The position numbers and the translations under genes were made by a program. DNA of 64,000 nucleotides from Thermoplasmata archaeon (GTDB lineage Archaea; Thermoplasmatota; Thermoplasmata; Lutacidiplasmatales; SKW197): assembly GCA_038874435.1 (NCBI GenBank), contig JAVZCK010000006.1, positions 37,332-101,331 on the forward strand, in the 5' to 3' direction. The stretch's first letter is position 1, and each line of letters starts with the position of its first letter. Positions 11-34,110 of the stretch are shown piece after piece. The notes under the pieces were generated by a model. That model saw only the letters and a list, made by a program, of their open reading frames with translations, searched no databases and was not told where the DNA came from.

Positions 11-406
11 ATGGCTGGCGTGAAACTTTCAAATGTGGTTTGGGCTGCTGTTGCTGGTATAGGCTTCTTGATATTGATTCTCATTTTCGTATGGATCTGG
101 CTGGTATATACACCCATGTGGGCATGTGTGATATCAGGGATTTTATCGCTTCTTCTAGGAACGCTAGCATACTTTGGACAGGCCTCACTCGAAAAACCAA
201 TATTTGGGCAGATTTCTGCAGTGGTCTTTGGAATTTTGGGTATTGGCTTTTTGATGGGTGCCGCATGGTTGCAGGTAGATGCACTGAAAATTCCTTGTCT
301 GATTGCAGTGCTTATTGTTGCTTTTATCGTGTTTGGATTCGGTGCATGGAAAATCAAAGACATTGAGCTGGAGAAGGAAATAAGGGCGAAGAGAAAGAAA
401 CTTTGA
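11..406 (+). CDS. small integral membrane protein (3-4 predicted TM helices), function unknown
   Basis: 131-aa ORF, almost entirely hydrophobic segments (VVWAAVAGIGFLILILIFVWIWLV...; AVVFGILGIGFLMGAAWL), with a basic C-terminal tail. No recognisable catalytic motif. Confidence 0.45.
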   Translation: MAGVKLSNVVWAAVAGIGFLILILIFVWIWLVYTPMWACVISGILSLLLGTLAYFGQASLEKPIFGQISAVVFGILGIGFLMGAAWLQVDALKIPCLIAVLIVAFIVFGFGAWKIKDIELEKEIRAKRKKL

Positions 407-494
407 GATTGCATTTTTTGGTGCTTAAAAATACAGTGTTTTCTGTCGTCTGGCAAGTAAGTTAACTATTGCTTGTAGTTAACAAGCGAAATGC

Positions 495-502
495 TTATAT
501 AC
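495..502 (+). promoter_or_regulatory. TATA-box-like element (ttatatac) about 40 nt upstream of the 540 ATG, plus a GGTG Shine-Dalgarno at 527-533
   Basis: AT-rich hexamer/octamer in the intergenic region with a purine-rich RBS 6-8 nt before the ATG. Typical archaeal promoter geometry. Seen directly in the sequence. Confidence 0.25.
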
Positions 503-539
503 TTCCAATTATTAGTATTAACTACAAAGAGGTGTTAAT

Positions 540-2675
540 ATGGAGCCAAAGAAAAGAAAAGGCAGAATGGTCGCAGGCGTGGCGGGTGCAGTGGTAACCA
601 TGCTGGTAATCAGCATGTTGTTGATGATTGTAAGTGTAAGGATGGGAAGTGCAGATGATGTAGAAACGGACCTTGCTGTGAATTCCACTTTGAGCGGAAG
701 TTTAAGTGGGGCTGGCAAGAAGGATTATTACAAGATTGTTGTAAACAGCGGGAGCAAGTTGATTGTGAAAATTGATGGACCAAATGGTGGGAGTGTTGAC
801 TTTGACCTTTACATAAAGAAGGACGGGAAGCCAACAACCTCAAGCTACACTGCAAGGGGTTACACGAGCTCTAGTGATGAGCAGGTGAGCGTGAGCGCGC
901 CTTCAGGCACTTACTATGCAATGGTTTATGCCTATAAGGGCTCTGGCAGTTACACAATTACTGCAACTGTGGAAGGCGGCAATGGAGGTGGTGGCGGTGG
1001 AGACAACGGCAACACGAATAATACCGATCCAAACACTCCATCCCAACTCCAGTTTGATATGCCAGTTACAGGCACACTTGATGCGAGCAAAACAAAAGCA
1101 TACTATTACTTTGATGCACCAAGGGCGGCAGCAAAAATCAAGGTTGTGTTAGACGGCCCAAGTGGTGCTGACTACGACCTTTATGTTAAGAAAGACAGCA
1201 CACCAACAACCTCAAGTTACCTTGTCAGAGGCTACACAAATTCTGCAGATGAAACAGTGCTTATCACTAACCAGACAGTAGATGTAGTCGCTGGAAGATA
1301 CTATGTGCTTGTAAACAGATACTCTGGAAGTGGACAATACACATTAACAGCGAGTTTTGAGACAATTGGTGGTGGAAGTTCTGGAAATAACTCCTCAGAG
1401 TCTGATGTGATTGAACTTCGTGCAGGTGTAGCAGTGACAGGGGCGCTAGATGCAAGCCATGCAAAAGAATACTACAAAATTACAGTGAGCTCAGGCACAG
1501 CACTCAAGGTGGTGCTGGATGGTCCAAGCGGTGCTGACTTTGATTTGTATGTGAAAAAGGGTGCGATGCCCACAACCTCAAGCTATGATGTTCGTGGATA
1601 CACAAATTCCGCTGATGAGCAGGTAAGTGTGAGCAATCCTTCTGGAACTTACTACATCATGGTAAACAGGTACTCTGGCTCTGGCAGTTACACAATCACT
1701 GCAAATGTTGACACTGGAAATAATGGTGGTGGCAACAACCCAAATGGTGATGACGACGGGGATGGACTTACAAACGCAAAAGAGACAGAACTTGGCACAA
1801 ATCCAAACAACCCAGATACAGATGGAGATTATATTCCAGATGGAATTGAAGTAAACATGTATGGCACAGACCCAACAAACAAGCAGTATGAAGCTCAATC
1901 CGCAAAAACACCATGGTCTGGATATTGGTGGCCAATGAAGGACAATGGGACCGCAGAGCCGTGTGCAAAGTACGATGCTTATGTGAACAAAACAAGGGGC
2001 TATAATCCACAAGCAGAAAAATGGGAGAAAGAACACCATGGGTGGAGCCCGAATGTGCAGTCATGGTGGGGACACTGCCATGCCTGGAGTGCAGCAGCAG
2101 TGAGTGAGGATGAGCCCACTCATTCGAAGACAGTGCAGGGGATTACATTCACAGTTGGGGACTTGAAGGGTCTGCTTACAGAATCTTACTACTCCTCTTC
2201 CTGTGACCTCTTTGTTGGCACAAGGTACAACGGGCCTTCAAACAATGTCCAGGATGTGCTGCCTAAGGACTTCCATATAACATTGCTGAAATGGATAGGA
2301 ACAAAGAAGAAAGCAGTGGTAATGGACATCACTGCCACTGAAGAGGTCTGGAACTACCCTGCCTACAAATACACAATGACCGTGAGCAATGACACACAGG
2401 ACAGCAGCAAGAAGCACTTTGTTGTAAAAGTGTGGTTTGCAGATGATGGGGTCTGGAAGGACTATGTAGGCACGAAGACGTTCACAATCACCTACAAGTA
2501 CTGGCTTAAATTCAGCACTAACGGAATAACTGATGGGGCATGGGAAGGCGGAAGTGAGAACACAAATGCAGATGCCCAGGCACATCCAGACTTCATCTGG
2601 CATCCAAGTGGTCCGGGAGTGGACTGGGGCTGTCAACTCAGGTATGAAATCGTAAAAGAAATCATCAACGCATAA
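540..2675 (+). CDS. secreted/anchored protein with 3 tandem PPC (pre-peptidase C-terminal, 'DFDLYV') domains, thrombospondin-type-3-like Ca-binding Asp repeats, and a C-terminal putative Cys-protease/transglutaminase-like domain
   Basis: There is an N-terminal basic region plus TM/signal anchor (MVAGVAGAVVTMLVISMLLMIV). Three ~100-aa repeats each contain 'DFDLY(I/V)KK...PTTSSY...GYT.S.DE.V...SGTYY..V..Y.GSGSYT(I/L)TA'. A 'DDDGDGLTNAKETELGTNPNNPDTDGDYIPDG' block follows. The C-terminal domain carries a 'WWGHCHAWSAAAV' motif that resembles the G-x-C-x-x-W/F-A/S catalytic Cys motif of papain/transglutaminase-like folds. Confidence 0.55.
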   Translation: MEPKKRKGRMVAGVAGAVVTMLVISMLLMIVSVRMGSADDVETDLAVNSTLSGSLSGAGKKDYYKIVVNSGSKLIVKIDGPNGGSVDFDLYIKKDGKPTTSSYTARGYTSSSDEQVSVSAPSGTYYAMVYAYKGSGSYTITATVEGGNGGGGGGDNGNTNNTDPNTPSQLQFDMPVTGTLDASKTKAYYYFDAPRAAAKIKVVLDGPSGADYDLYVKKDSTPTTSSYLVRGYTNSADETVLITNQTVDVVAGRYYVLVNRYSGSGQYTLTASFETIGGGSSGNNSSESDVIELRAGVAVTGALDASHAKEYYKITVSSGTALKVVLDGPSGADFDLYVKKGAMPTTSSYDVRGYTNSADEQVSVSNPSGTYYIMVNRYSGSGSYTITANVDTGNNGGGNNPNGDDDGDGLTNAKETELGTNPNNPDTDGDYIPDGIEVNMYGTDPTNKQYEAQSAKTPWSGYWWPMKDNGTAEPCAKYDAYVNKTRGYNPQAEKWEKEHHGWSPNVQSWWGHCHAWSAAAVSEDEPTHSKTVQGITFTVGDLKGLLTESYYSSSCDLFVGTRYNGPSNNVQDVLPKDFHITLLKWIGTKKKAVVMDITATEEVWNYPAYKYTMTVSNDTQDSSKKHFVVKVWFADDGVWKDYVGTKTFTITYKYWLKFSTNGITDGAWEGGSENTNADAQAHPDFIWHPSGPGVDWGCQLRYEIVKEIINA

Positions 2676-5238
2676 ACTTTTTTTCCAATTCTTCTTTTGC
2701 CTCCTGTACTTCTTTTTCTAATCCAATTTTTGCAGCTTCATTGAGGGCTTCCTCAATTGCTGATCTAAATTTTTCTTCATCACCCTTCTCTGCATATGCC
2801 TCCGCAATATCAATTTGGTTATATACCAACATCCATTTGTCCCCTGTTTTCTTGCAGAGACGCTTAACCTCAAGATAGAGCGAAAGTGCCTTTTCAATTT
2901 CACCAATTTCAAAATAAACATTTCCCAGATTGTTCTTTGCAATTGCAATACCTGCAAGGTCATGAACTATTTCTTTCATTTCCACTGTCTTCTCAAGACA
3001 TTTTCTTGCATTCCCGAAATCCTCCAATTCATAGTAAACCATTCCAAGGTTGTTGTAAACTTGGGAAAGCCCTTGTTTGTCGTTGTTTCTAGCAAAAATT
3101 TCCTCAGCCATTCTCAGGTTAGCAATGCTCTCATCGTAGTTTCCCAAGTAGTAGTAAGTGGAGCCAATTCGGGTATAGCAGTTTCCAGCATCTTTTTCCA
3201 TTCCATGTTTTGTGAAAAATTCTAGGGCTTTTTCCTGGCATTCAATCGCATTCTTATAATTACCTGCTCGTTCATGAATGTAACCCTTGATTGTAAGCAG
3301 GCGCGTGATTTCTCCTGCTGCAGTAGAGGATGTACCAGTAATAACTTCAAATGCTTTGTTTATACTTTCCATTGCTTTTTCATGCTCGCCCATCTTAAGA
3401 TAAACCTCTGCCCTAGTTGCATAGGTTCTCCCAAGTTCTGCACCAGGCTCTCCCAGGAGAGAAATCTTCTCGTCCAAAACTTTCATTGCATCCTCGTAGA
3501 GTCCAGACGCAAGATAAATCTCAAGAATCTTATTCAGGGTTTTCAAGGCAATCTCAAAATCTTGGACATCCTTCTTGTTCAACGTTGTAAAAAGCGCCTT
3601 CAAAATCTCTATAGCTTCATCGTATGCGAATCTGCCAACAAGTTTCTCAGCAACCAAAAATCCATGCTCTTTCAACTTATCCAGACGTTTTGCCTTCCTA
3701 TAATGGTAAAGTGCATCAATTATCTTTTCTTCATCACCCTTTTTGTACTCCGCCTCCAGAATTCCACCAAGCATTTCATGAAGAGCAGTTCTGAGTTCAT
3801 CACCCATCTCCTGGTATATCACATCTCTAATTCTAGTAGGGTCAAATCTATATTTGCCTTCCTCGTGCTTTATCAGTCCATGAATCTTCTCGATTCTAGA
3901 CAATGCTCTGAGAAGCTTTATTTTCTCCATGTCAACCATTTTTTCTAGCAATGGAGTGACAAACTCGGTTCCAAGAACACTAGCTGTTTCAAGCACCTCA
4001 AACTCCTCATCACTCAACCTGGTAATTTTCTCCCTTATTATCTCATAGATTCTTTCTGGGATTTTTATTTCTTCTCGATCATACGTCCACAATCCTCCCT
4101 CTTGTCTGAGCAGTTGCTTATCAGTAAGATACTTCAGCAGCTCAATTACAAAGAGTGGGTTTCCCTCTGTTTCAGAGTACACTTTTTCCTTAAAACTTTC
4201 GTCCACATGCCCTCCAAGAACGCACTCTATCAACGCGGCAACACCCTCTCTATCTAGTGGAGCAAGAGTCAAAACTTCGATTAGATTTTCAGACCGCATT
4301 GTATTTATCATCCCAGGTAAGACACTCGTAGTTGGAATTTCATCTGTTCTAATTGCACATAGCACCCCAACCTTTTCTGAAGCAATATCCCTACCAATGT
4401 AGCTGAGAAGAGAAAGAGAAGAACTGTCTGCCCAATGTAAGTCATCAATGAGTATGAGCACTGGCTTTTTCATAGCCATTCTTTTGATTCCACGAAGCAC
4501 ATTTTCAAAAATGCCTGCCTTTTTATCTGCAGTTTCCAGTGCCACCTTAGTGTATTTGTCAGATTCAACAAGTTCTCTGAGCATCACTGTGACTTCATCA
4601 ATATCTGTATCCAATGCATTAGGATTATTGTCTATTTTATCAACTAGTTTTTTCATGTCTTCTAGCAGATATTCGTTTTCAACGCCTTCAACCAATGCAA
4701 CAAGATTCACAACTCTACCAGGTAAGCTCACTATCGTAAACTCACCGTGCCGCATCACTCCAATTTTTTCCTCAATTTCTTTGTGATTTTGGCCAGCAAT
4801 CTGAGTCATCGAATCCTTTATGAAATTTTCAACCGCTGTTACCATTCCAAGAAAAATGTCAGGGTCTATGTTTTTCAAGGTCTTCTCGTGTTTTGAAAGG
4901 ATTATGCCTCCTTTATTTACCAGATAAAGAGCATCTAAGTTTGGGCATGTCTCTGAAAGTAAATGATCTAGATCTGCAGATTTAAGCATGCTGTAAAATG
5001 GTGCTAGTGGCAAGGCAGCACCAGGTAGGCACTTAGTATGAAGAACGCAGAAGTTCTCTTCCTCTGCCTTCTTCTTTACTTCTTCAAGCAATCTAGTTTT
5101 TCCCACTCCTCCCTCTCCCTGAATCAGAAAAATGCTACCGGCTCCATTTGCCGTCTTCCTAATGAGCCGATCTAGATAAGAAATTTCCTTTGTTCTGTCT
5201 ACAAATGCTGGGGGTAGGTTGAGTGCAATCGTCATCAA
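2665..5238 (-). CDS. STAND/AAA_16-type NTPase with C-terminal TPR repeat array; about 100 aa Roadblock/LC7-like insertion between Walker A and Walker B
   Basis: Walker A 'IQGEGGVGKTRLLEEV' and Walker B 'VLILIDDLHWAD' are present. The spacing between them is unusually long and contains 'ALYLVNKGGIILSK...DPDIFLGMVTAVENF...GEFTIVSLPGRVVNLVALVEG'. This aligns by eye to the Roadblock protein at 17075-17434. The C-terminal ~450 aa are TPR-like (repeated A/Y/G/N..Y..A...Y..A patterns, e.g. 'GNYDESIANLRMAEEIF', 'EDFGNARKCLEKTVEM'). The gene overlaps the 3' end of the 540-2675 gene convergently by 11 nt. Confidence 0.7.
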   Translation of the reverse strand: MMTIALNLPPAFVDRTKEISYLDRLIRKTANGAGSIFLIQGEGGVGKTRLLEEVKKKAEEENFCVLHTKCLPGAALPLAPFYSMLKSADLDHLLSETCPNLDALYLVNKGGIILSKHEKTLKNIDPDIFLGMVTAVENFIKDSMTQIAGQNHKEIEEKIGVMRHGEFTIVSLPGRVVNLVALVEGVENEYLLEDMKKLVDKIDNNPNALDTDIDEVTVMLRELVESDKYTKVALETADKKAGIFENVLRGIKRMAMKKPVLILIDDLHWADSSSLSLLSYIGRDIASEKVGVLCAIRTDEIPTTSVLPGMINTMRSENLIEVLTLAPLDREGVAALIECVLGGHVDESFKEKVYSETEGNPLFVIELLKYLTDKQLLRQEGGLWTYDREEIKIPERIYEIIREKITRLSDEEFEVLETASVLGTEFVTPLLEKMVDMEKIKLLRALSRIEKIHGLIKHEEGKYRFDPTRIRDVIYQEMGDELRTALHEMLGGILEAEYKKGDEEKIIDALYHYRKAKRLDKLKEHGFLVAEKLVGRFAYDEAIEILKALFTTLNKKDVQDFEIALKTLNKILEIYLASGLYEDAMKVLDEKISLLGEPGAELGRTYATRAEVYLKMGEHEKAMESINKAFEVITGTSSTAAGEITRLLTIKGYIHERAGNYKNAIECQEKALEFFTKHGMEKDAGNCYTRIGSTYYYLGNYDESIANLRMAEEIFARNNDKQGLSQVYNNLGMVYYELEDFGNARKCLEKTVEMKEIVHDLAGIAIAKNNLGNVYFEIGEIEKALSLYLEVKRLCKKTGDKWMLVYNQIDIAEAYAEKGDEEKFRSAIEEALNEAAKIGLEKEVQEAKEELEKKFMR

Positions 5239-5294
5239 AATAGGGTAATCTCACTAAACTATTAATCCCTTTCTAAGTTTAGTTCAAGAAAGGT

Positions 5295-5302
5295 ATAAAT
5301 AC
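5295..5302 (+). promoter_or_regulatory. TATA-box-like element (tataaata) about 30-38 nt upstream of the 5333 ATG; GGTGA RBS at 5324-5328
   Basis: Seen directly: 'aaggtataaatacc' followed by 'ggtgattaaATG'. Confidence 0.3.
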
Positions 5303-5332
5303 CAATATGTAATCCTGTTCTCTGGTGATTAA

Positions 5333-7078
5333 ATGAAAGCGGGCAGGATATTAGTTCTTGTGTTGATTTGGATAATGTTGAGCGGAGTTTTCCCCCATAC
5401 ATCGCCCAAAAATGTGGAGGGGGGCTATGCACTCGAATGGACCTGGAAATACGAGACAAACAGCACAGTAAAAGGAATCTCCATTACCGATGACGCAAAA
5501 TACATTGGTGCCTATGATTACGCAAACAATGTATATTTGTTTGAGGCAGATACAGGGAGCCTTGTAAGAACATGGATTTATGGTGCAGATATTACTGGTA
5601 TAAAAATTGCAAAAAAGGCAGACCCACCACTGCTCTTCGTCACAGATAGAGGGTCAGTAAGGGTTTATAGGCAGGACATGCAAACCCCTTATCGAATCTA
5701 TTCACCAAACCAACCGCCTCAATATGGCTGGAATGTCTCCCTGCCAAGGCCAGGCAACATAACTGGCTTCGATGTTTCTGCTGATGGGAAACTGCTGATG
5801 GTCACTTACTACTACAGATGGTCAAACACATGGAAATACAATGTTTCTATGTACAATGTCGAAACAGGCACAGAACTCTGGAACTATCAGACTGGATTCT
5901 CAGACGCAAGAGCCAAATTTGGCCTCACTGCTTCCTATGACGGAAAATTCTTCGTTGTTGGTGTATCTGAATCCGACACTTATGTACGATTGGAACTTTA
6001 TGAAAGGGATAGCCCATATGGACCAAAATGGCAGACAGACCGCTTGAGAGACATTTTGGGCTCTGGCTATTTGTCTAGAATTACTGCCATGAAGATGTCA
6101 GATGATGGCACTGTGATAATGGTCTGCACCAACAATGCAATTCTTAAGTTCATCCAGACACAAAACAAGGAGGTTTGGAGGGTGGATGGAATTAGAGATG
6201 CTGTAGCTACATCAATGAATTATTCTGGTAGTGAGGGATTCGTTGCTGTTGGGAAGCAGATTACTTTCCTTGACCTTTCTACGATGGAGTTTTCGAAGCG
6301 ATTCAAATGGAACTGGACAACACCAGACAACAATACAATTGTTAATGCGTTCATGGACAAAGATGGAAACTACATTGTAGTTGCAACTGCAAAGAACATG
6401 TGGCTGATATATGTGCCAGTGCACAAACCGTTCCGGAGCATTGAACTTTCCACGGATTTTGACCTTGTAAGTAGCATTGACTTAAGCAGAGATGATGGAA
6501 GCAGGATTGCACTTGGTGCCGCATACAGAGTGACAGACAACCCGGCAGGAGTGTACATGTTTGATAATCCAAAAGCAATTAAACCGCAACCTTGTGAAAT
6601 TTTTGGATTTTTTGATGTAACAACCACCTCAATGAATGTTACATGGTCTGCTTCAACCGCGCCTGACTTTGCGAGGTACGAACTGTACTGTGACTCTAAC
6701 CTCAACACAATCTCCACGAATCCACAGAATGCAGAAAAAAGATATGTGATAACAAACAAAGACACCACATACAAGGAAGTGACTGGTCTCCAGCCAGGAA
6801 CTACTTATTTCTTCAAGCTCAGGGTAATCTGCATAACCGAACTGTATGCGGATTCACAGGTGAAACAGAAGATGACAGAGGTGCCACCACCTCCTCCAGA
6901 TTACACTCCATACATTGTTGCTGCTGTGGTAATCACTGTACTTGTGGTATTTCTGCTCTGGTACTTCTACCTGAGACACAAGATACCTGAATGGAAAGAG
7001 AAGCGCAAGAAAAAGAAAGGCAAGAGCGTGGCATGGCATCAGAGACCAGGAGAATACCTACCACCAGGGTTTGAATAA
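5333..7078 (+). CDS. cell-surface protein: signal peptide, beta-propeller-like region, fibronectin type III domain, C-terminal TM anchor plus Lys-rich tail
   Basis: N-terminal signal 'MKAGRILVLVLIWIMLSGV'. Repeated W/Y-rich beta-strand blocks. Clear FN3 'PCEIFGFFDVTTTSMNVTWSASTAPDFARYELYC...GLQPGTTYFFKLRV'. Pro-rich stalk 'PPPPPDYTP' then TM 'IVAAVVITVLVVFLLWYFYL' then 'KEKRKKKKGK'. Many N-x-S/T sequons. Confidence 0.6.
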   Translation: MKAGRILVLVLIWIMLSGVFPHTSPKNVEGGYALEWTWKYETNSTVKGISITDDAKYIGAYDYANNVYLFEADTGSLVRTWIYGADITGIKIAKKADPPLLFVTDRGSVRVYRQDMQTPYRIYSPNQPPQYGWNVSLPRPGNITGFDVSADGKLLMVTYYYRWSNTWKYNVSMYNVETGTELWNYQTGFSDARAKFGLTASYDGKFFVVGVSESDTYVRLELYERDSPYGPKWQTDRLRDILGSGYLSRITAMKMSDDGTVIMVCTNNAILKFIQTQNKEVWRVDGIRDAVATSMNYSGSEGFVAVGKQITFLDLSTMEFSKRFKWNWTTPDNNTIVNAFMDKDGNYIVVATAKNMWLIYVPVHKPFRSIELSTDFDLVSSIDLSRDDGSRIALGAAYRVTDNPAGVYMFDNPKAIKPQPCEIFGFFDVTTTSMNVTWSASTAPDFARYELYCDSNLNTISTNPQNAEKRYVITNKDTTYKEVTGLQPGTTYFFKLRVICITELYADSQVKQKMTEVPPPPPDYTPYIVAAVVITVLVVFLLWYFYLRHKIPEWKEKRKKKKGKSVAWHQRPGEYLPPGFE

Positions 7079-7088
7079 ATTAAAATTT

Positions 7089-7922
7089 TTATTTCTTCTT
7101 TTTCTCTTTCTTTGGTTTTGATGTTTGGGTTATATGATTAGGACAGTTTGTGTTCAACGGGACTTCAAGAACTTCGAACACGTTCCTATACCCATCGTAG
7201 TAAATCAAGTTGTAAGGCAATGCATCATACTCTTTTGAGATTATCTTTATCCCACAGAGGACCTGAAGAGCAGAAATTACCGCGGTAGTTGTGATTTCTG
7301 CAGGCAATTTCGGAGAATAAATCGTCACATCCTCTCTGCCTGAACATGAGAAGATTTGCTCAAGGTTCTTGAAATGGGTTTTGTTCATCCCGCATTCGAT
7401 ACAAGCAGTTTTTGGAGGGAGTACCACCTGGACTTTGCCTGATGTACCTAGGGTACCTCCATCTACAAGTGGAATCCCATAATAATAAGCATGAGAATTA
7501 ATGTATAGCCGTGCCATGATATTGTCTAAGCATCCAAATATAATATCAAACTCCTTGAGAAAATTCTCAGGCAGTTCCTGAATTGGCTTAGAATACCAAG
7601 AAACACGAACTGTTTTATCCAGTTTCTTCAATTCTCTTGCAAGCACTTCTGCCTTCAGCAGCCCTTTCTCAGCATCCTCAATTCTAAAGAGGGCACATCT
7701 GCTTAAATTGGATTTCACAATTTTGTCCATGTCTACTATCGCAATATTCTTGAAACCGGAAAGTACTAGATTTTTTCCTACCTCATTGCCAAGGGCACCC
7801 GCACCAACAACAAGTACCTTACTCTTCTGAATTAAGTTGAATTTTATCCACGGAATCCTCTTCTCTCTATCAAACATGTCTTCGTCGTGCATTCCGACCT
7901 TCAACACTTTATCTGCCGTCAT
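7089..7922 (-). CDS. E1-like ubiquitin/Ubl-activating enzyme (ThiF/MoeB/HesA family adenylyltransferase)
   Basis: Rossmann nucleotide-binding 'KVLVVGAGALGNEVGKNLVLSGF', 'IVDMDKIVKSNLSRC' (E1 Arg-finger/NLxRQ-like), catalytic Asp region 'FGCLDN', and a Zn-binding Cys cluster 'CIECGMNK...SCSG...NCPNH'. The start ATG lies 1 nt after the JAMM gene's TAA stop. Lys-rich C-terminal tail. Confidence 0.8.
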   Translation of the reverse strand: MTADKVLKVGMHDEDMFDREKRIPWIKFNLIQKSKVLVVGAGALGNEVGKNLVLSGFKNIAIVDMDKIVKSNLSRCALFRIEDAEKGLLKAEVLARELKKLDKTVRVSWYSKPIQELPENFLKEFDIIFGCLDNIMARLYINSHAYYYGIPLVDGGTLGTSGKVQVVLPPKTACIECGMNKTHFKNLEQIFSCSGREDVTIYSPKLPAEITTTAVISALQVLCGIKIISKEYDALPYNLIYYDGYRNVFEVLEVPLNTNCPNHITQTSKPKKEKKKK

Positions 7923-7923
7923 C

Positions 7924-10563
7924 TTAACCTCCCTGTGCTTTTTTGAATCCCTTCTTCTCGAGTTTCCTCAAAATTTCTTCTGCCTCTTCTTTTTCTTTAA
8001 GAATTTCTTCTTTTTGCTTTTTCAACTTCTCCATCACCTTTTCTGCATTGGATTTTACCTCAAGGAATTTCTTTACTGCAGGAGCAAGTTCTTTTTCAAC
8101 TCTCTCCACAACTTCCTTCACAATTTCAGTTTTCAGCGCTTCCTGGGGTACCTTCTTCCCAAGCAACTCGGTTATCACAGTTTCAAGCTCAGCCCTCATC
8201 CTTTTAAGCGTCTCTCTCTCATTCTCCAAGTTATTCTTTTCCTCCAGTAATGCCTGGGTCTTCAATTCAATTTCGTGGAGCATGTCTTCAACATTCTTCT
8301 TCTCTTTCTCCACTTCCTCCTTCTTTGTATTAACCATTGCTTCAAGTTCATCCATCTGTTTCTTCCTAGCTGCAAATTCTTTTCCCATTTCATCAATAAC
8401 AGCAAGGTCTTTAGCTATCTCAGCCTCCTTCTTTTTCACTATCTCCTCCCTTTCACTTATCTCCTTTTCTCTCCTCTCAACTTCCATGACTTTTCTTTCT
8501 ACATACTCCTCTTTCTCAGCCAGGACTCTTTCTCTTTCTGTCAGAGTTGCTTCATATCTTGTGATCTTGTCAACACGCTGATTGTATTCCTTTCTCGCCT
8601 CCTCAATCTGCACGCGCTCTAATGTCATAGCTTTCTCTTGCTCAGAAATCACTGCTTCTCTCTCCCTCAGCTCCTTCTCTTTCTCCGCCAATCTCAGATT
8701 TATCGCTTTCAGTTTTTCTTCCTCTCCACGAATAAATTCTTCTTTTTCGTAGAGCACTTTTTCCTTGTCCTCTATTGCTACTTTCCTAGCTTCAAGTTCC
8801 TGCTTGACACGAATAACATCGTTCTCTTCCTTCTTCAATCTTTCTCGGGTCTCACTCAATTCAATTGCTTTCGCATTAGTTTGCTCAATTGCTTTGGAGA
8901 GAGCAATTTTTGTTTGATCTAGCTCCTCACTCTTTGCAGATGTTTCAGCTAACATCTGATTAAGTTGACGTTCTTTCTCCTCTAGTTGTGCAGCAAGAAC
9001 CCTAGCACGGTCCTCTTCTGCCTTCAACCATTCTTCTTTTTCTCGAATTATTTTCTCCTTCTCAGCAAGCATCGTTGCCATCATCGCTTGCTCCGTCGCC
9101 TTTGTATCAACTTCTCTTTTCTCTCTTTCCAGTTCTTCCATCAGCTTAATAAATTTTTCAACCTTCTCCTTCTCTCCAGTTTCTTCTTTGAGCGACTGGA
9201 TCGCATCGAGAATCCATTTTTCTTTTAAATTCAGTTCTTTTTCTTTTATTCTTATTTCCTCCCTTATCTGTCTCAACTCCTTTAAATCCGTTTCTATTTT
9301 TTTCTGCATTTCTGCGGGCATGGTAGCAATGTTCTGGGGGTATTCTTGAGCTTCTTTCAACCTTTCCTCCCACTGCCTCAATTCTTCAAACTTTGCGTTC
9401 AAAGCATTTCGTTCCATCTCCAGCTGATACATTTGAACTGTAAGATTTTCCTCACGCTTTCTGAAATCCTGCGACATTGCTTCAAATGCCTGAATTTTTG
9501 CATTTAGTTCAATCCCAATTTGTTTGATTCTCTCTTCCTCTGTTTTTAACCAGTTTTCCCACTCTGTAAGCTCTGCAATCTTCTTGTTGATATCGGAGTA
9601 ATTCTCTTGAAGTTTGTTCTCTCGCATTTTAAGGTCTTCTTCCCATACATAAAGGTCGCTTTCCTTTGTTTTCAGTGCTTCCTCTTTCTCAGCAAGTTCG
9701 TTTTTCAAATTCTCCAGTTCTCTATACTTCTCACTCAACGTAGCCAAAGAGTCTTCTATGCTGGGCATCTCAAATTCATATTTGCAATTCGGACAGATTT
9801 CTTCTGTAAAGCCAACCTCCGCTTTGCACCTAGGACAAATTTTTGTCTCGTCATCAGTATGTTCTTTTTTCTTAAGCATTTTTTTCTTTTTAACTGGGTA
9901 CTGTATTTTTCCCATCTCTGTCTTCCATTTTCCACAATCATAGGGTTTCTGTAATTCCTCCCAGAATATTGCATAAGGGCGGAGGTAATAATCCATGTCC
10001 TTAACACCAAACACAGCGAACTCCTCATTTATTGGGTCCACAACTATTGCAGAGTGATATTCATGTGGAAACATCTTGGTCTGGGTTGAGATGTCTGTGC
10101 TAGAGAGAAAACATGTATGACCTGGATGTGAATGGTACCAACCAACAAGGATGTAATCAAAAGGAATCTCATCTAGTTGCTCAAACAATTTCTCATATCC
10201 TTCCTTATCGAATTTCACATGAACAGCACTAGCATCCAGATCTGATGTCACAATGTCTCTCACTACTGCATAAACTTTACCATCGTATTTATACACATCC
10301 CCCAAAAGAAAACCCATTACTTCCAGAGTCTGTGATTTGTACTTCATCGCATGGAGAAGAATCTTTTCTTCAGCATTCTTAGAAATATATACATCAAAAA
10401 TTTTTGAGGATTCAATTGTTTTCTTGAACAGCTCAAATCCTTCTTTTGAAGCCCATTCATGGGGTGCTAAATACTCATACTGTGGTGGTTCTTTATTCGA
10501 AATTTCTTTTTTGCTTTCGCCCACAATCTTAGGCTTTTCCCTCGCCATCTTCTGCTCCTCCAA
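7924..10563 (-). CDS. JAMM/MPN+ metalloisopeptidase (Rpn11/AMSH-like deubiquitinase-type) fused to a Zn ribbon and a ~600-aa coiled-coil region
   Basis: The N-terminal ~200 aa carry the conserved Glu ('LEVMGFLLGD') and the complete JAMM motif 'HSHPGHTCFLSSTD' (H-x-H-x7-S-x2-D). A Zn ribbon 'CPRCKAEVGFTEEICPNCKYEF' follows. The remainder is E/K/L-rich heptad-like sequence (ELENLKNELAEKEEALK...), i.e. a long coiled coil. The protein ends '...KKAQGG'. It overlaps the E2 gene 3' end by 35 nt. Confidence 0.85.
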   Translation of the reverse strand: MEEQKMAREKPKIVGESKKEISNKEPPQYEYLAPHEWASKEGFELFKKTIESSKIFDVYISKNAEEKILLHAMKYKSQTLEVMGFLLGDVYKYDGKVYAVVRDIVTSDLDASAVHVKFDKEGYEKLFEQLDEIPFDYILVGWYHSHPGHTCFLSSTDISTQTKMFPHEYHSAIVVDPINEEFAVFGVKDMDYYLRPYAIFWEELQKPYDCGKWKTEMGKIQYPVKKKKMLKKKEHTDDETKICPRCKAEVGFTEEICPNCKYEFEMPSIEDSLATLSEKYRELENLKNELAEKEEALKTKESDLYVWEEDLKMRENKLQENYSDINKKIAELTEWENWLKTEEERIKQIGIELNAKIQAFEAMSQDFRKREENLTVQMYQLEMERNALNAKFEELRQWEERLKEAQEYPQNIATMPAEMQKKIETDLKELRQIREEIRIKEKELNLKEKWILDAIQSLKEETGEKEKVEKFIKLMEELEREKREVDTKATEQAMMATMLAEKEKIIREKEEWLKAEEDRARVLAAQLEEKERQLNQMLAETSAKSEELDQTKIALSKAIEQTNAKAIELSETRERLKKEENDVIRVKQELEARKVAIEDKEKVLYEKEEFIRGEEEKLKAINLRLAEKEKELREREAVISEQEKAMTLERVQIEEARKEYNQRVDKITRYEATLTERERVLAEKEEYVERKVMEVERREKEISEREEIVKKKEAEIAKDLAVIDEMGKEFAARKKQMDELEAMVNTKKEEVEKEKKNVEDMLHEIELKTQALLEEKNNLENERETLKRMRAELETVITELLGKKVPQEALKTEIVKEVVERVEKELAPAVKKFLEVKSNAEKVMEKLKKQKEEILKEKEEAEEILRKLEKKGFKKAQGG

Positions 10564-11071
10564 CTATCTTTGGAGCATGTTCTGTCTTTGTCTTCTCTAC
10601 AATTACTGGAGGTTTGTACGGATGCTTTTCAAAATACTCTGCGGCCTTCTGGCATGCCTCACTACCAAGAGGATTGCCTGGGTTAGGATTTGAAAGAAGT
10701 GTCTCAAGTCCCTTTATGAACATTAAGAGCGTAGACTGTGGGGTCCATGTGTCGAACAGCTTGGTACAGACATAGCCTCCTTCATGTGGGGGCATTATAT
10801 TCGGATGAAATATCGGACTGAGCCATCTTACAATCGGCTTCTGATATGGATACTGAGCCGTAATAATAATTTTCACTTTGTGGGTATATCTAGTAGTCAC
10901 TTTACCTTCCCAGAGAAATGGTCCAGGCGTTTTCACAAATGTGAGGTCTATTTCTATCGGAAAGTTGGATAAGCTACTGTCTGAAACAGAGAGTATGTGC
11001 CTTAGCTCTTTCTTGCACGTAAGGATTTCATTATACAATCTTTGCCTCAATACTTCGATAGGAAGCGGCAC
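10529..11071 (-). CDS. ubiquitin-conjugating enzyme E2 (UBC fold), GTG start
   Basis: 'YPYQKPIVRWLSPIFHPNIMPPHEGGYVCTKLFDTWTPQSTLLMFIKGLETLLSNPNPGNPLGSEACQKAAEYF' matches the UBC core nearly residue-for-pattern: Y-P...P, the HPN motif, the catalytic Cys about 10 residues later, W-(S/T)-P, LL..PNP..PL...A. The start codon is GTG (11069-11071), preceded by a GAGGGGGA Shine-Dalgarno. Confidence 0.85.
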   Translation of the reverse strand: MPLPIEVLRQRLYNEILTCKKELRHILSVSDSSLSNFPIEIDLTFVKTPGPFLWEGKVTTRYTHKVKIIITAQYPYQKPIVRWLSPIFHPNIMPPHEGGYVCTKLFDTWTPQSTLLMFIKGLETLLSNPNPGNPLGSEACQKAAEYFEKHPYKPPVIVEKTKTEHAPKIVGGAEDGEGKA

Positions 11072-11086
11072 ATCTGATTCCCCCTC

Positions 11087-12154
11087 TCAACATCCGCCTT
11101 CTGGGTCAGGTATAAGCTCCATTAAGTCCCCGTCTCTTATATCTGCTTCCTCCACCTTGGTCTCACCACGAAGTATGCGCTTTCCCTTGCGGAGCACATA
11201 CACACCAATGTTCTTTTCCCAGTAGGTTCCCACACTTTCTATGATCTCGTCTATTGTGTTGTCCGGCTCAAGTTCCATGTCCAGCGAAGCACCTGTCTCA
11301 GCATCACGCACTTTCACTCTTATCGACATTTCTTCCACCACCTTTTTCTTTTTTACAGTTTCTTCTTTTTCTGCCTCACTTGAAAGTAATCGGAATTTTT
11401 GCATGATGAGTTCAAAACTCTCTTTTTTTGTCTCTTCAGATTCCACAAGTTCTTCCTCCTCTTCCTCCTCACCTTTGGGTTCACTTATTCCGGCTTTTTT
11501 ATAATCTATAACCTCCAGGTATTGTTTCAATGTCTCAATTTCCTTCTTGCTCAGGACAATCGGTGAAACATGGACAATGAACACACCATTGTTCACTGAA
11601 ACCATGTCAACTACACCTTTCACAAAATCAATCACCTTTTCAAAACCGTTGGCTGTTATGAGAAGTCCGATTGCATCCAGAATGATTGCTGGTTTTGAAT
11701 TGTTTTTAACAAATTCACCGATGATGTAAGTCATCTCAAACTCCAATCGCTGCGGGTCCAAGGTCTTTTCCTTGGTCAATGTTGATGTAAGCCAGTATAT
11801 TTCCTCAATGTTTACATTGTACCTCTTTCTAATCTTTCTAGGATTGCTTTTTGTGAGACATAATCCTGCAAATCCAGCATCTAGTAAGTCCTTGAACAAC
11901 CTATAGGCAAGATTTTCATCCTCTGCGATGTAACTTCCACCCGTCTCCAAAAAGCTTGTGGGTTTCGAGGAAGCAAATCTAGCACCACAGTGAGGACAGA
12001 CTTCATCTAGTTCTCCAACCTCTCCGTTGCATTTGGGGCAGAGAAACACCTCTTCAAATAGTTCCTTTCCGCAAGAGGGACAAATAGTAGAGTCCTTTGG
12101 AATATTTTTACCGCAATAAGGACACTTCGTGGTTTCTGAAGTTTCGGGTGTCAT
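11087..12154 (-). CDS. double zinc-ribbon + DUF835-like domain protein with C-terminal ubiquitin-like beta-grasp domain ending Gly-Gly-Cys
   Basis: N-terminus 'CPYCG..x10..CPSCG..x10..CPKCN..x10..CPHCG' (four CxxC pairs). The middle domain resembles the C-terminal domain of the 20651-21820 protein. The last 80 aa 'MSIRVKVRDAETGASLDMELEPDNTIDEIIESVG...RILRGETKVEEADIRDGDLMELIPDPEGGC' parallel ubiquitin (MQIFVKT...VEPSDTIENVKAKI...LRLRGG) and terminate in GG followed by a single Cys. Confidence 0.75.
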   Translation of the reverse strand: MTPETSETTKCPYCGKNIPKDSTICPSCGKELFEEVFLCPKCNGEVGELDEVCPHCGARFASSKPTSFLETGGSYIAEDENLAYRLFKDLLDAGFAGLCLTKSNPRKIRKRYNVNIEEIYWLTSTLTKEKTLDPQRLEFEMTYIIGEFVKNNSKPAIILDAIGLLITANGFEKVIDFVKGVVDMVSVNNGVFIVHVSPIVLSKKEIETLKQYLEVIDYKKAGISEPKGEEEEEEELVESEETKKESFELIMQKFRLLSSEAEKEETVKKKKVVEEMSIRVKVRDAETGASLDMELEPDNTIDEIIESVGTYWEKNIGVYVLRKGKRILRGETKVEEADIRDGDLMELIPDPEGGC

Positions 12155-16647: not shown

Positions 16648-17067
16648 TTGCGATTTCATGGTAACATGAAGTTCGTCAGAATTTCACAGGCGGAACTGGT
16701 GAAAATCAAGGAACTCTACGAAGGCGTGATGTCTCATGCCTGTCATGGACTTTTCTTCAGAGAAGGGGCAATATTTGGCGCAGAAATTGCAAATGAAGCC
16801 ATGAAGGACAAGGGAAACTACTTCAAAATAGTGGAGATGCTAATAAAGAACAGGGGCTGGGTGGATGAGATTTCCTTTAAGGAACACGAAGTAATAGTGA
16901 AGGGCTCAATTGAAGTCACACCATCTGAGATCCCAACATGTCATCGACTCAGAGGACTGATAAGACAGGTTTATGAGGTGTACTACAACACCAAAGTCCA
17001 TTGTGTGGAAGTTGAATGTGAAAGCACAGGGAAAGACAAATGTGTATTTAAGATAGAGGCAATATAG
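16648..17067 (+). CDS. V4R-domain-like small protein
   Basis: 'CHGLFFREGAIFGAEIANEAM' (C..F...GAI.GA) and C-terminal 'ECESTGKDKCVFKIEAI' (C...G...C.F.I) resemble the V4R (4-vinyl reductase) small-molecule-binding fold. Adjacent to a Roadblock protein, as in known archaeal clusters. Confidence 0.45.
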   Translation: MRFHGNMKFVRISQAELVKIKELYEGVMSHACHGLFFREGAIFGAEIANEAMKDKGNYFKIVEMLIKNRGWVDEISFKEHEVIVKGSIEVTPSEIPTCHRLRGLIRQVYEVYYNTKVHCVEVECESTGKDKCVFKIEAI

Positions 17068-17074
17068 GGGAGGA

Positions 17075-17434
17075 ATGAAAATGCCGGTGAATATGAATGA
17101 AGTGGTAAAAACTCTGAAAATAAGCACTGGAGCAATTGCAGTAGCGGTGGTGAGCAGAGATGGGCTTGTTATTGCTGCAGAGATGCCACCAGGAGTTTAT
17201 ACAGAGACATTTGCAATTATGTGCGCTACAATCCTAGGAGCAAGCATAACTGCCACGTCTGAGCTTAAACGTGCTACACCTGAAAGGATAGTGATAGAAA
17301 GTTCAGATACCAGAACTATAATTCTAGGTGCAGGGAAGAAAGCACTCTTAATCTGTGTTGTGGATTCCACAAAAGACCTGAATATGGTGCTTTCAGAAAT
17401 GCAGAAGGCAGCAGATGCAATAAAAGCACCTTAA
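17075..17434 (+). CDS. Roadblock/LC7 (MglB-like) domain protein
   Basis: 'TGAIAVAVVSRDGLVIAAEMP' is the classic Roadblock beta-strand motif, followed by a helix and 'RIVIESSDTRTIILGAGKKALLICVV'. RBS 'ggaggaATG'. Confidence 0.8.
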   Translation: MKMPVNMNEVVKTLKISTGAIAVAVVSRDGLVIAAEMPPGVYTETFAIMCATILGASITATSELKRATPERIVIESSDTRTIILGAGKKALLICVVDSTKDLNMVLSEMQKAADAIKAP

Positions 17435-31803: not shown

Positions 31804-34110
31804 ATGGCGAATATGGTTGTCTGCCCGAAATGTGGTTCCATCAACTCCCCGAAAGCTATGGAGTGCACAGAATGTGGTTCTCCGCTAGTTCCAGATAAGC
31901 TCCGATTCTTACTGGATGTGCAAGGTATGAACCCATCATTAATTCAAAAACTCTACCTTGCCGGTTTTAAAAATGCCGACGACCTCAAGAATGCTAGTGT
32001 AAAAGAAATCGCCAAAGTTGAAGGTATCACAAGAAATATGGCTGAGAGAATCAAACAGCAAATAATCAAACTTGAACTTACTGGGAACCAGAAGAGTGTT
32101 TCTCTCTACATTTGCTCTCACTGTGGTGCGCTTCTCTCAGAAAAAGCCACATCCTGCCCACAATGTGGTGCTGCAGTGGTCCAAGAACCAGAGACAGAAG
32201 TTCAGCTTGAAACGAAAACTTCCCCAGAAGAAGAGAAACTGATAAAAGAACTGGAAAAGCCAAAAATTACCCTTTTTCTCTGCTCAAACTGTGGGGCTTT
32301 TGTATCCAGTGATGCAAGAGCATGTCCAAACTGTGGTGCTCTAATGGAAAGTGCTGCTGAGGAAGAAATTGAAACCAAGGAAGGCACATCAGAAGTCAAA
32401 ACAACCCCTGAAATTACACCAATGCACGAGATGGATGGTGCGATCATAGGTGTGTGCAGTTCCTGCGGTGCATTTCTGTCAAGAAGTGCAAAGGCATGTC
32501 CAGTATGTGGAAGCCCAGCTGAAAACAACATTAGTGTGGCAATAAATTCCATTGGTGAAGTGGAAACAAGAGGTAAAGAAACACCAATCAAGCCAGATTT
32601 TGCAATATCCAGCTTCGATCCGAAGCTTGAATCAGAGGGCAAAATTTTTTTGTGTGAGGTCTGTGGTGCGTTTGTTTCAGAAGGTGCCGAAGTGTGTCCT
32701 GTGTGCAACTCCCCAACCACAAATATGAAGAAGGAGGTAATCAGAATAGGCACACCTGAGAAAATGAGCAGTGAGGAGCTCATAAATCTTTTAGAAAAAG
32801 AAATAACTAAGGCGATAGATGATGCAGAGAAATCAATAGCCGAAGAGAAGAAAATTGAGATGCAACAGATGCCTGTTGAACCAGAAGTTGTCGAACTCCA
32901 TGGCTTTGAGTCCATTGAAGCGGAATTGAAGGAGGCAATTCCTGAGCATCAGACGGAGCCGGAATCTGAAGAGGCGCAGGAACATGTGGAACATCTAGAG
33001 GATGTGCATTCTGCAGTCACCTATGAAATTGGAGACATTCTTGTAGAAAGTGTGCTGAAGAATAAATTCTCTTTTGAAGAGACGGAAAATGTAGAAAAAA
33101 TAGAGCATGTTTCAGACCCTGTTGGAGAGGTCGAAAGCGAACTCTGGGAGTATTTTTTTGACGCCGAGGAGGAAAAAACAGAAGTGGAAGGAACTGAATG
33201 TCCTATATGTGGTTACAAAAATCCAGCCAATGAGGAAAAGTGCGAGATTTGTGGCTCAACCATTATGCCAGAAGAGGAAGAGAAACGGGAGGAAGAAATC
33301 ACTGAACCACCTAAAAAAGTGAAAAAGGAAGTAGTGATCGAAGAAAAAAAGGCACAGCCAGATAAAGCAGCCAAAGAAGTTGAAAAGGTGAAAAAGGAAG
33401 TGATGACTGTGCCTGTTGGCAAAGTAAAGGTGAAGCCCATCCCAGTTGGAAAGAAAGTTTCTCGAGTATCTCCTCTTGAAAAGCATTATTATAAAATACT
33501 TGGAATTTCTCTTGCAGGTACTGGGATTGTATGTTTGCTTGTTTTTGGTGTATCAACTCTATCTGCGGGTGTTATGGCTCTCGTCTTTATTGTTATAGGG
33601 GCGATTTTCTCGTTGTTGATGCTGAAGCATCAGAAGAAGGAAGAACCTACAGTTCAAAAATTTCTCAAGGTTCCTCAACCCTCGAAACCCAGTGAAGTTG
33701 CTTTGTTCAATATGGGGTCAACATATCTTACTACAGGGAGATTCAATGATGCAGTGAAGGCCTTTGAAGAGGTTGTGAAATTGAATCCAAGAAATGAGGT
33801 TGCATGGAATAATCTGGGCAGCGCGCTTTCAAAACTGGAGAAACATGAGGATGCACTGAAATGCTACGAAAAGGCACTAGAACTTAAACCAGATTTTGAG
33901 ATTGCATGGAATAACAGAGGGAATGCCCTTGCACGACTTGGAAGATTTGAGGAAGCACTTGAATGCTATGATAAAGCGATTGCACTAAAAAGAGATTATC
34001 ATGATGCCTGGGTGAACAAGGGCTATGTGCTAGTTAAAATTGGGCGATACAGCGAGGCAATCGCCTGTGCAAATGAGGCAAACAAGCTCGTGGAGAGAAC
34101 CTATGGCTGA
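31804..34110 (+). CDS. multi-zinc-ribbon protein (six CxxC...CxxC ribbons), helix-hairpin-helix, acidic linker, TM segment, C-terminal TPR repeats
   Basis: The six ribbons are 'CPKCGS..CTECGS', 'CSHCGA..CPQCGA', 'CSNCGA..CPNCGA', 'CSSCGA..CPVCGS', 'CEVCGA..CPVCNS' and 'CPICGY..CEICGS'. HhH 'VKEIAKVEGITRNMAERI'. TM 'ISLAGTGIVCLLVFGVSTLSAGVMALVFIVIGAIF'. TPRs 'AVKAFEEVVKLNPRNEVAWNNLGSAL...ALKCYEKALELKPDFEIAWNNRGNAL...'. Confidence 0.65.
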   Translation: MANMVVCPKCGSINSPKAMECTECGSPLVPDKLRFLLDVQGMNPSLIQKLYLAGFKNADDLKNASVKEIAKVEGITRNMAERIKQQIIKLELTGNQKSVSLYICSHCGALLSEKATSCPQCGAAVVQEPETEVQLETKTSPEEEKLIKELEKPKITLFLCSNCGAFVSSDARACPNCGALMESAAEEEIETKEGTSEVKTTPEITPMHEMDGAIIGVCSSCGAFLSRSAKACPVCGSPAENNISVAINSIGEVETRGKETPIKPDFAISSFDPKLESEGKIFLCEVCGAFVSEGAEVCPVCNSPTTNMKKEVIRIGTPEKMSSEELINLLEKEITKAIDDAEKSIAEEKKIEMQQMPVEPEVVELHGFESIEAELKEAIPEHQTEPESEEAQEHVEHLEDVHSAVTYEIGDILVESVLKNKFSFEETENVEKIEHVSDPVGEVESELWEYFFDAEEEKTEVEGTECPICGYKNPANEEKCEICGSTIMPEEEEKREEEITEPPKKVKKEVVIEEKKAQPDKAAKEVEKVKKEVMTVPVGKVKVKPIPVGKKVSRVSPLEKHYYKILGISLAGTGIVCLLVFGVSTLSAGVMALVFIVIGAIFSLLMLKHQKKEEPTVQKFLKVPQPSKPSEVALFNMGSTYLTTGRFNDAVKAFEEVVKLNPRNEVAWNNLGSALSKLEKHEDALKCYEKALELKPDFEIAWNNRGNALARLGRFEEALECYDKAIALKRDYHDAWVNKGYVLVKIGRYSEAIACANEANKLVERTYG

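Follow-up and report, generated by a model that had tools for sequence, protein, structure and literature searches.

The stretch of DNA analyzed here, referred to as the window, comprises 64,000 nucleotides (positions 37,332 to 101,331 of contig JAVZCK010000006.1 in the Thermoplasmata archaeon assembly GCA_038874435.1). Near its start, on the reverse strand, lies a gene encoding a signal transduction ATPase with numerous domains (STAND) that ends in an array of tetratricopeptide repeats (TPRs) and that carries, between the Walker A and Walker B motifs of its nucleotide-binding domain, an additional module of about 130 residues. This insert is very probably real and of the longin/roadblock fold. 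The best overall explanation, to which a probability of about 0.5 is assigned, is that of a STAND-TPR protein into which a longin/roadblock module has been spliced to serve as output or adaptor.

A folded domain between Walker A and Walker B

The open reading frame (ORF) at positions 2665-5238 specifies 857 residues when read from its TTG; an ATG directly after, at position 5235, yields a protein of 856 residues and is the likely true start. The 856-residue version is identical to NCBI entry MEM3396433.1 (P0121), annotated as 'MAG: tetratricopeptide repeat protein [Thermoplasmata archaeon]', where MAG denotes a metagenome-assembled genome, and the same protein is encoded on at least six independent contigs or assemblies. 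An earlier note on this DNA had described the product as a STAND-type NTPase with a TPR array, and this description holds. Pfam AAA_16 was matched with 73.9 bits, relative to a cut-off of 32.6 bits (E = 2.9e-20), with residues 12-285 (274 residues) being aligned onto only 158 profile positions. A Walker A motif of the form GxxxxGK[ST] and a Walker B motif of the form hhhhDD (LILIDD, residues 261-266) are both present, as in AAA_16/MalT-like STAND proteins, and a weak match to TPR_MalT was also obtained. Walker A residues G40, G43, G45, and K46 (856-residue numbering) are invariant across 79 family members, the family-conserved Walker B residues D265, W268, and D270 are kept, and Walker A, Walker B, and the sensor-1 Arg are all intact.

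The AlphaFold2 (AF2) model of the full-length protein (predicted local distance difference test score (pLDDT) 91.5; predicted template modeling score (pTM) 0.79) presents the STAND domain order: the five-stranded core is followed by a helical domain, then by two winged helices with beta-hairpins, and finally by the TPRs. In this model, strand beta1 (residues 35-40), the P-loop, helix alpha1 (46-59), strand beta2 (63-68), and two short helices (78-86 and 90-93) lead to the insert, itself comprising strands at 99-107 and 112-117, a helix at 125-147, strands at 159-163, 166-172, and 176-183, and helices at 188-202 and 207-223. The chain then continues through a core helix (235-256) into the Walker B strand (259-264) and the other strands of the nucleotide-binding domain, before the helical domain, the winged helices, and the TPRs. 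The top Foldseek match to this model in the PDB was the Pyrococcus STAND-TPR protein 6mfv (E = 4.8e-19), with the TPR domains of LGN and KLC, as well as Avs3 (E = 1.6e-9), also being among the matches. Neither the Pfam scan nor the AF2 model revealed any effector domain besides the insert; merely 34 residues precede the P-loop strand, and all that follows the nucleotide-binding oligomerization domain (NOD), made up of the nucleotide-binding, helical, and winged-helix domains, is TPR.

The Walker motifs, which the earlier note had placed about 215 residues apart, roughly twice the usual AAA_16 distance, were measured to be separated by 220 residues. By comparison, the median spacing in 105 insert-free AAA_16 relatives found with residues 1-343 is 112 (interquartile range 109.5-115), while that in 92 module-bearing relatives is 226 (range 217-232). 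The spacing is extended because a whole folded domain has been inserted, with about 130 residues standing in place of the approximately 35-residue linker of insert-free relatives, for a net gain of about 105 residues. According to the model, the point of insertion is the beta2-beta3 connection of the nucleotide-binding domain, ahead of the helix leading into the Walker B strand. The core segment before the insert (residues 49-98) is found in insert-free homologues as well, and the core helix after it (residues 230-260) aligns with 'ELQKAQLLEHVLGTL...' in those proteins.

A folded domain of similar size also occupies the equivalent site in the actinobacterial AAA_16 proteins P0026, P0033, and P0041 (Walker spacing 244-245). 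There, a domain of about 130 residues, PucR-like and assigned to PF07905 in precomputed annotation, lies between the 'GP..LARLLP' helix and the helix leading to Walker B. Unlike the module considered here, it comes from an unrelated family and its hosts are bacterial. The presence of an unrelated domain at an equivalent point identifies this loop as a recurrent insertion site, and shows no kinship between the two inserts.

To describe the fold of the insert, residues 97-229 were modeled using an alignment of 46 diverse module copies. The resulting AF2 model (pLDDT 88; pTM 0.80) shows the order beta1-beta2-alpha1-beta3-beta4-beta5-alpha2-alpha3, with alpha1 carrying a DxDIF..M..AV..F.KDS motif. 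The best Foldseek match was LAMTOR2 (E = 2.8e-4). Structural comparison of the insert returned values of 11.6 for the AP-4 mu longin domain, 11.3 for delta-COP, 11.2 for the VAMP7 longin domain, 11.0 for Asgard Roadblock3 (9jue_D), 10.7 for MglB (3t1r_A), 10.6 for p14/LAMTOR2, and 10.3 for a Streptomyces Roadblock protein (3kye_A). The five-stranded antiparallel sheet between helices that is common to longin and roadblock domains is present, and the order of elements is that of longin domains. By contrast, the N-terminal helix of the Roadblock topology is lacking, given how the module begins at beta1 in every context; the helices ahead of it in the STAND protein are part of the nucleotide-binding domain and persist in insert-free relatives. 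By this model, the insert is of the longin/roadblock superfold with the longin element order, having no N-terminal helix and two C-terminal helices. The earlier proposal of a Roadblock/LC7-like domain between Walker A and Walker B is thus borne out as regards an alpha/beta domain of this superfold, with a roadblock-like fold seen in both the insert and full-length models, and is not as regards Robl_LC7 membership and the N-terminal helix.

At the level of sequence, a Pfam scan of the excised insert yielded no Robl_LC7 match, nor anything relevant at E <= 10. Among the 46 modules, Robl_LC7 was the sole Pfam family matched by more than one (three modules; best E = 2.6e-5). The two such matches inspected scored 17.4 and 14 bits, under the 23-bit gathering cut-off, and placed module residues 2-82 onto profile positions 12-90 of 91, spanning the full beta-beta-alpha-beta-beta-beta core that comes after the N-terminal helix of Roadblock. 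No Robl_LC7 match was detected in Pfam scans of ten membrane-type or otherwise divergent modules. Of the longin families tested (Longin, Clat_adaptor_s, Sedlin_N, Sybindin, and Fuz_longin), none was significantly matched, the best being Fuz_longin_1 (E = 0.13) in one of the 46 modules. Searches of PDB sequences with phmmer and hmmsearch, using the insert, the insert profile, and the N-terminal 498 residues, returned spurious helical matches or none, such that the fold cannot be placed by sequence search alone. What sequence similarity remains points to Roadblock; one family member is named 'TPR repeat protein/predicted regulator of Ras-like GTPase activity' by the JGI pipeline. By the curated threshold, the module is outside Pfam Robl_LC7, and no separate Pfam model exists for it.

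Distribution and contexts of the module

The family came to light when the profile of the insert was run exhaustively with HMMER: 2,073 proteins matched at E <= 1e-3, of which 432 reached E <= 1e-10 and 46 reached E <= 1e-30. Because the profile recovers so many proteins at E <= 1e-10, the insert is no chance feature. A word-indexed search with residues 1-343 returned just one insert-bearing homologue, and a homologue search with the module alignment gave a single weak match. Most of the top 150 module matches are proteins of approximately 900-1,050 residues that have their Walker motifs around residues 40 (A) and 262 (B) and present the same architecture as the window protein. The module is characterized by the family motif DxDIF..M..AV..FVKDS and, in most members, by W-x-G-D. 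The design that the earlier note had called unusual is therefore shared by hundreds of homologues bearing the same insertion; it is constant throughout a large Thermoplasmatota family rich in paralogues, and the module is mobile, being present outside NTPases as well.

The spread of the family was addressed by a genome scan covering one genome for each of 185,579 species, relying on two module peptide motifs derived from eight closer sequences. This revealed 78 confirmed loci, all in MAGs assigned to Thermoplasmata, Thermoplasmatota, or Methanomassiliicoccales. Up to eight loci came from a single MAG, and two or three tandem paralogues were seen in 10 of the 78. The inserted module is probably a family-wide trait confined, as far as sampled, to Thermoplasmatota.

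The mobile module also occurs next to the membrane. It is found directly behind a transmembrane (TM) helix in proteins with an ectodomain-TM-module arrangement (P0267 and P0269), as a tandem pair behind four TM helices (P0254, P0263, and P0265), and at the C-terminal end of a protein that spans the membrane several times (locus L064, 1319-2764). Proteins of 1,200-2,200 residues without TM helices (P0131, P0169, P0172, and P0250) contain two or three module copies spaced by about 460-510 residues, together with CARDB-like domains; all but P0172 end in DUF5915. One of these CARDB-containing multi-module proteins is from 'Candidatus Proteinoplasmatales archaeon SG8-5'. Finally, single-pass receptor-STAND proteins (P0125, P0126, P0129, P0136, P0138, P0148, and P0205) combine a large ectodomain, one strong TM helix, the STAND region with its insert, and TPRs. 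Their ectodomains are of the NosD beta-helix, fn3, He_PIG, FG-GAP, Big_9, or cadherin-like types.

When the ORFs neighboring the 78 loci were clustered, the commonest neighbor after the STAND family itself was a Ras-family small GTPase, represented by 12 genes in nine loci. These GTPases are of about 280-300 residues, have a helical C-terminal extension, and match Pfam Ras (PF00071) with E = 1e-27 to 1e-35. They are encoded at or within about 3 kb of the family member and, in eight of the nine loci, abut the STAND gene. The GTPase gene is found on the same strand upstream of the STAND gene in L064 and L071, on the same strand downstream in L065 (4-nt overlap) and L077, in divergent orientation in L002, L003, and L079, and in convergent orientation in L056. 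In L065, the STAND gene spans 1828-4521 and the GTPase gene 4517-5425; in L064, the GTPase gene spans 4647-5618 and the STAND gene abutting it 5683-8667. The GTPases fall into at least three subfamilies, and their genes are arranged in several ways. Such adjacency, as a raw count over the 78 loci, is suggestive but is a minority pattern. In three loci, a gene encoding a DUF835 protein is located between Ras-like GTPase genes and the STAND gene (L002, 4031-5005; L003; and L018, 2899-4794). In L064 (1319-11385), four related genes are clustered within 10 kb, encoding the multi-pass membrane protein with its terminal module, a Ras-like GTPase, an insert-bearing STAND protein, and another member of the STAND family.

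Possible roles: output platform, cis-regulator, or adaptor

With the NOD and the sensor accounting for the rest of the protein, the insert is most likely its output or adaptor. Together, the lack of any other effector, the appearance of the module in membrane proteins, and the Ras-family GTPase neighbors of some family members suggest an output or adaptor platform. That the insert would act in this manner, and not as a regulator of its own P-loop, is judged to be slightly short of an even chance. Longin and roadblock domains are established platforms for small GTPases, and typically form homo- or heterodimers (PMC3747258). By analogy with other STAND proteins, ligand binding by the TPR array would release autoinhibition, allowing for ADP/ATP exchange and NOD oligomerization. 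The change in NOD state could then expose or pair the inserted modules, yielding a longin/roadblock dimer platform. Such a platform might bind a partner, most likely a Ras-family small GTPase or else the same module on membrane receptor-like proteins.

A broader proposal, offered only tentatively, is that the module represents an undescribed non-Asgard archaeal branch of longin/roadblock domains that wires receptor-like membrane proteins, STAND switches, and Ras-family GTPases into a single signaling system near the membrane in Thermoplasmatota, with STAND oligomerization assembling dimers that would serve as guanine nucleotide exchange factor (GEF), GTPase-activating protein (GAP), or scaffold.

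Several observations weigh against the reading of the window protein as a STAND-TPR switch with a longin/roadblock output module. The earlier note had described a strand-by-strand match between the insert and the stand-alone Roadblock protein encoded at 17075-17434. When the insert was compared with the family of that protein using hhalign, an alignment of 88 columns was obtained, with the whole beta-beta-alpha-beta-beta-beta-alpha stretch in register, but the similarity is not significant (E = 0.057; probability about 1%). The same is true of a BLASTP comparison with the protein itself (E = 0.083 over 52 residues). Local searches in both directions with hidden Markov models (HMMs) of the module and Roadblock were likewise weak (best E = 4.5e-4 in a set of 154 sequences). 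With respect to distribution, the motifs used in the genome scan were narrow and biased to one subfamily, such that absence outside Thermoplasmatota is not proven and the apparent restriction could in part be a sampling effect.

As to a GTPase partner, no Ras-family gene is nearby in 69 of the 78 family loci, and a family match search of the 64-kb window found no GTPase of the associated Ras type. A cognate Ras-like GTPase gene beside that of the platform, as seen with MglB, is thus a property of nine loci and not of the window, where the STAND gene stands alone. A small-GTPase partner for the window protein itself is doubtful.

The window protein also departs from family consensus. At positions conserved in over 90% of members, W208L, G210T, G230K, and H466P (856-residue numbering) are seen, with R118K being a further departure. 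W208L and G210T fall in the W-x-G-D motif, in the alpha2-alpha3 linker of the module, and loss of this motif is common to the closest relatives of the protein. H466P converts the family F-D-H motif, in which the His is found in 91% of 79 members, into F-D-P. This His presumably plays the role of that in the MHD motif, contacting ADP. The conserved winged-helix His expected of STAND proteins, as in MHD, is hence lacking, a point that bears on this paralogue and leaves the fold assignment unaffected. This paralogue may have diverged or partly degenerated, or may belong to a functionally shifted subfamily.

Were the insert instead a built-in GAP/GEF-like or lid element that acts on its own P-loop, tuning ATP hydrolysis or ADP release with no external partner, its location inside the nucleotide-binding domain, between beta2 and the Walker B strand and not at an end, would be readily understood. 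Strict conservation of insertion site and length, reflected in the narrow range of Walker spacing, would also be expected if active-site geometry mattered, and roadblock and longin domains do regulate NTPases elsewhere (PMC3747258). The module, however, also exists in TM proteins and in the CARDB-containing giants, outside any NTPase, and so has a role independent of a P-loop in cis. Known longin/roadblock regulators work through the switch regions of TRAFAC-class GTPases; STAND proteins are ASCE-class ATPases. Moreover, the unrelated PF07905 domain at the same site suggests a permissive loop and not a catalytic position, and a protein so regulated would have no output domain left. Cis-regulation is less economical for these reasons, namely, the existence of the module without a P-loop, the acceptance of unrelated domains by the loop, and the absence of any remaining output, and is considered unlikely.

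It is equally unlikely that no GTPase is needed and that the module forms pairs with its copies on receptor-like membrane proteins, thereby relaying an external signal to the STAND protein in a manner analogous to death-fold or TIR domains in eukaryotic STAND pathways. The dimerization typical of longin/roadblock domains (PMC3747258), the position of the module right behind TM helices in ectodomain-TM and multi-TM proteins, at times as a tandem pair, and the direct fusion of ectodomain, TM helix, and insert-bearing STAND region would all suit such homotypic pairing. So would locus L064, with its multi-TM module protein, Ras-like GTPase, and two STAND genes. Still, a non-STAND module gene was found near a STAND gene in only 1 of the 78 loci. 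In the window, an HMM of the 46 diverse modules matched solely the STAND ORF (E = 5.6e-37), with no second copy of the module found in the 64 kb. The divergently oriented neighbor at 5333-7078, encoding a protein with beta-propeller, fn3, and TM regions, lacks the module; it was considered as a conserved partner and rejected, being absent beside the orthologue of the STAND gene in locus L080.

A defence-type role, as raised in the earlier note, would have the TPRs recognize a viral protein, with the insert serving as a lineage-specific effector or decoy and the paralogues reflecting an arms race, as in an Avs-like antiviral STAND system. The many paralogues per genome and their tandem arrays, the Foldseek match to Avs3, and a weak Pfam match to BrxC_BrxD in the P-loop region (E = 5.9e-4) are consistent with this. 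By contrast, PADLOC returned only the generic model PDLC01169 'TPR' (E = 7.3e-7), with no match for the NTPase region or for neighboring genes. The protein contains no killing domain, be it a nuclease, a protease, TIR, or any other, and the neighbors encode housekeeping or surface proteins. We know of no longin/roadblock fold that serves as the effector of a defence system. The role is unsupported, with the proposal of a defence system being set aside as very improbable.

That the insert is an artefact, arising from mis-assembly or ORF fusion or else being a linker that mimics the alternation of strands and helices, could draw on the non-significant pairwise similarity to the local Roadblock protein, and is ruled out by the identical protein on at least six contigs or assemblies, the hundreds of homologues of the same architecture, and the AF2 model.

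The surrounding genes and the place of the family among known systems

The features of the STAND gene and of other genes in the window are listed in Table 1. In locus L080, which contains an orthologue of about 70% identity, the tail-to-tail PPC/TSP3 neighbor and the overlap with it are kept, while the beta-propeller neighbor is not. RNA folding of the 5' leader of the STAND gene gave no structure signal (z = -0.19), and no tRNA or Rfam feature was detected in the 64-kb window. The stand-alone Roadblock gene belongs to a family that is highly conserved across Thermoplasmata and is followed by a gene for a YjeF-like protein, with a GTPase being absent there. The window also includes a eukaryote-like ubiquitin-type gene cluster (7089-12154, reverse strand), seen here in a Thermoplasmata MAG, and a series of genes encoding very large proteins that are secreted or on the cell surface (44026-59455).

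Table 1. Features of the STAND gene and of other genes in the window (nucleotide positions within the window; residues of the 857-residue reading).
Feature	Nucleotides	Residues	Strand or orientation	Remarks
Whole STAND gene	2665..5238		(-)	NOD (nucleotide-binding, helical, and winged-helix domains), inserted module of predicted longin/roadblock fold, C-terminal TPR array
Walker A/P-loop GEGGVGKT	5095..5118	41-48	(-)	Motif in translation
Nucleotide-binding-domain core, P-loop to insert	4945..5094	49-98	(-)	Helix alpha1, strand beta2, two short helices
Inserted module, about 130 residues, predicted longin/roadblock superfold	4552..4944	99-229	(-)	HMM, AF2, Foldseek
Core helix back into nucleotide-binding domain, up to Walker B strand	4459..4551	230-260	(-)	Helix 235-256 in full model
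Walker B LILIDDLHWAD	4426..4458	261-271	(-)	Motif in translation
Rest of NOD	3739..4425	272-500	(-)	Sensor-1 strand with conserved Arg, helical domain with EGNP motif, two winged-helix-like hairpins
TPR sensor array	2668..3738	~501-857	(-)	Pfam TPR_12 (E = 4.1e-31), TPR_1, TPR_2, TPR_8; all-helical repeats in model
Secreted PPC/TSP3/transglutaminase-elicitor gene	540-2675		Convergent with STAND gene	11-nt 3' overlap, 2665-2675
Signal-peptide/beta-propeller/fn3/TM gene	5333-7078		Divergent from STAND gene	Without module
ThiF-type E1	7089-7922		(-)	Ubiquitin-type cluster
JAB/MPN protease fused to coiled coil of ~700 residues	7924-10563		(-)	Ubiquitin-type cluster
UQ_con E2	10529-11071		(-)	Ubiquitin-type cluster
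Zinc-ribbon and DUF835 protein	11087-12154		(-)	Ubiquitin-type cluster
V4R-domain gene	16648..17067		(+)	Directly upstream of Roadblock gene; Pfam V4R E = 7.9e-12
Stand-alone Roadblock/LC7 gene	17075..17434		(+)	Pfam Robl_LC7 E = 6.8e-13; 'roadblock/LC7 domain-containing protein [Thermoplasmata archaeon]'
Helix-hairpin-helix, multi-zinc-ribbon, and TPR protein	31804-34110			Window gene
NosD beta-helix protein	44026-46509		(-)	Large-surface-protein run
Subtilase, 1,642 residues	47925-52853		(-)	Large-surface-protein run
CarboxypepD_reg-repeat protein, 2,169 residues	52946-59455		(+)	Large-surface-protein run

When compared with known systems, the window protein resembles STAND-TPR proteins of the MalT/AAA_16 type, such as Pyrococcus horikoshii PH0952 (6mfv), in its P-loop domain with Walker A and B motifs, its helical and winged-helix domains, and its C-terminal TPRs. 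It differs in the spacing of the Walker motifs and in having no terminal effector, such as an HTH, cyclase, or kinase domain; the module family, moreover, includes single-pass TM receptor forms. The likeness to Roadblock/LC7 proteins (PF03259), including MglB, LAMTOR2/p14-MP1, dynein Robl, and archaeal Roadblock proteins, lies in the weak, in-register Pfam matches of some relatives and in the Ras-family GTPase genes adjoining some family members, as MglA adjoins MglB. Yet, the insert has no Robl_LC7 match, the module has two C-terminal helices and no N-terminal Roadblock helix, and it sits within another domain, whereas Roadblock is a stand-alone protein of about 120 residues. With longin domains (AP mu/sigma, VAMP7/Sec22/Ykt6, delta/zeta-COP, Mon1-Ccz1, and TRAPP), the module shares the order of elements and the two C-terminal helices. 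Here, the differences are the lack of a significant Pfam match, the presence of motifs of its own, and occurrence in Thermoplasmatota, with longin domains being chiefly eukaryotic and Asgard.

In the covalent combinations of NTPase and platform represented by Rag/Gtr proteins (C-terminal roadblock domain), SRP receptor alpha (N-terminal longin-like SRX domain), and Asgard RagA-like and Roadblock-Longin fusions, the NTPases are TRAFAC-class small GTPases and the platform is at a terminus. By contrast, the family of the window protein has a STAND ATPase of the ASCE class, with the platform lying inside its nucleotide-binding domain. To our knowledge, no known combination of this sort has its platform inside a STAND ATPase. 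A full-text search, of incomplete coverage and hence offering absence of evidence only, found no paper that joins STAND ATPases with Roadblock, longin, or MglB domains or that describes this Thermoplasmata family. As far as found, a known switch and a known fold are brought together here in a new, family-wide combination that includes an undescribed domain family.

Members of the family are presently annotated just as 'TPR repeat protein' or 'predicted ATPase', and about 2,000 protein clusters would be better annotated if the domain were defined. STAND ATPases, including NLRs, Apaf-1, MalT, and Avs proteins, and the longin/roadblock platforms of GTPases are two very widely used signaling devices, and their fusion is, as far as found, unreported. 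If the GTPase link is functional, the family would offer a tractable prokaryotic system in which an ATP switch controls a GTP switch, and elaborate longin/roadblock-GTPase circuitry would not be limited to Asgard archaea and eukaryotes. Should membrane receptor-like proteins, STAND switches, and Ras-family GTPases truly be wired together by the module, the system would present a prokaryotic counterpart to the logic of Ragulator-Rag or Mon1-Ccz1, with an NLR-like ATPase as its gate, as well as the first STAND nucleotide-binding domain to incorporate a longin/roadblock platform.

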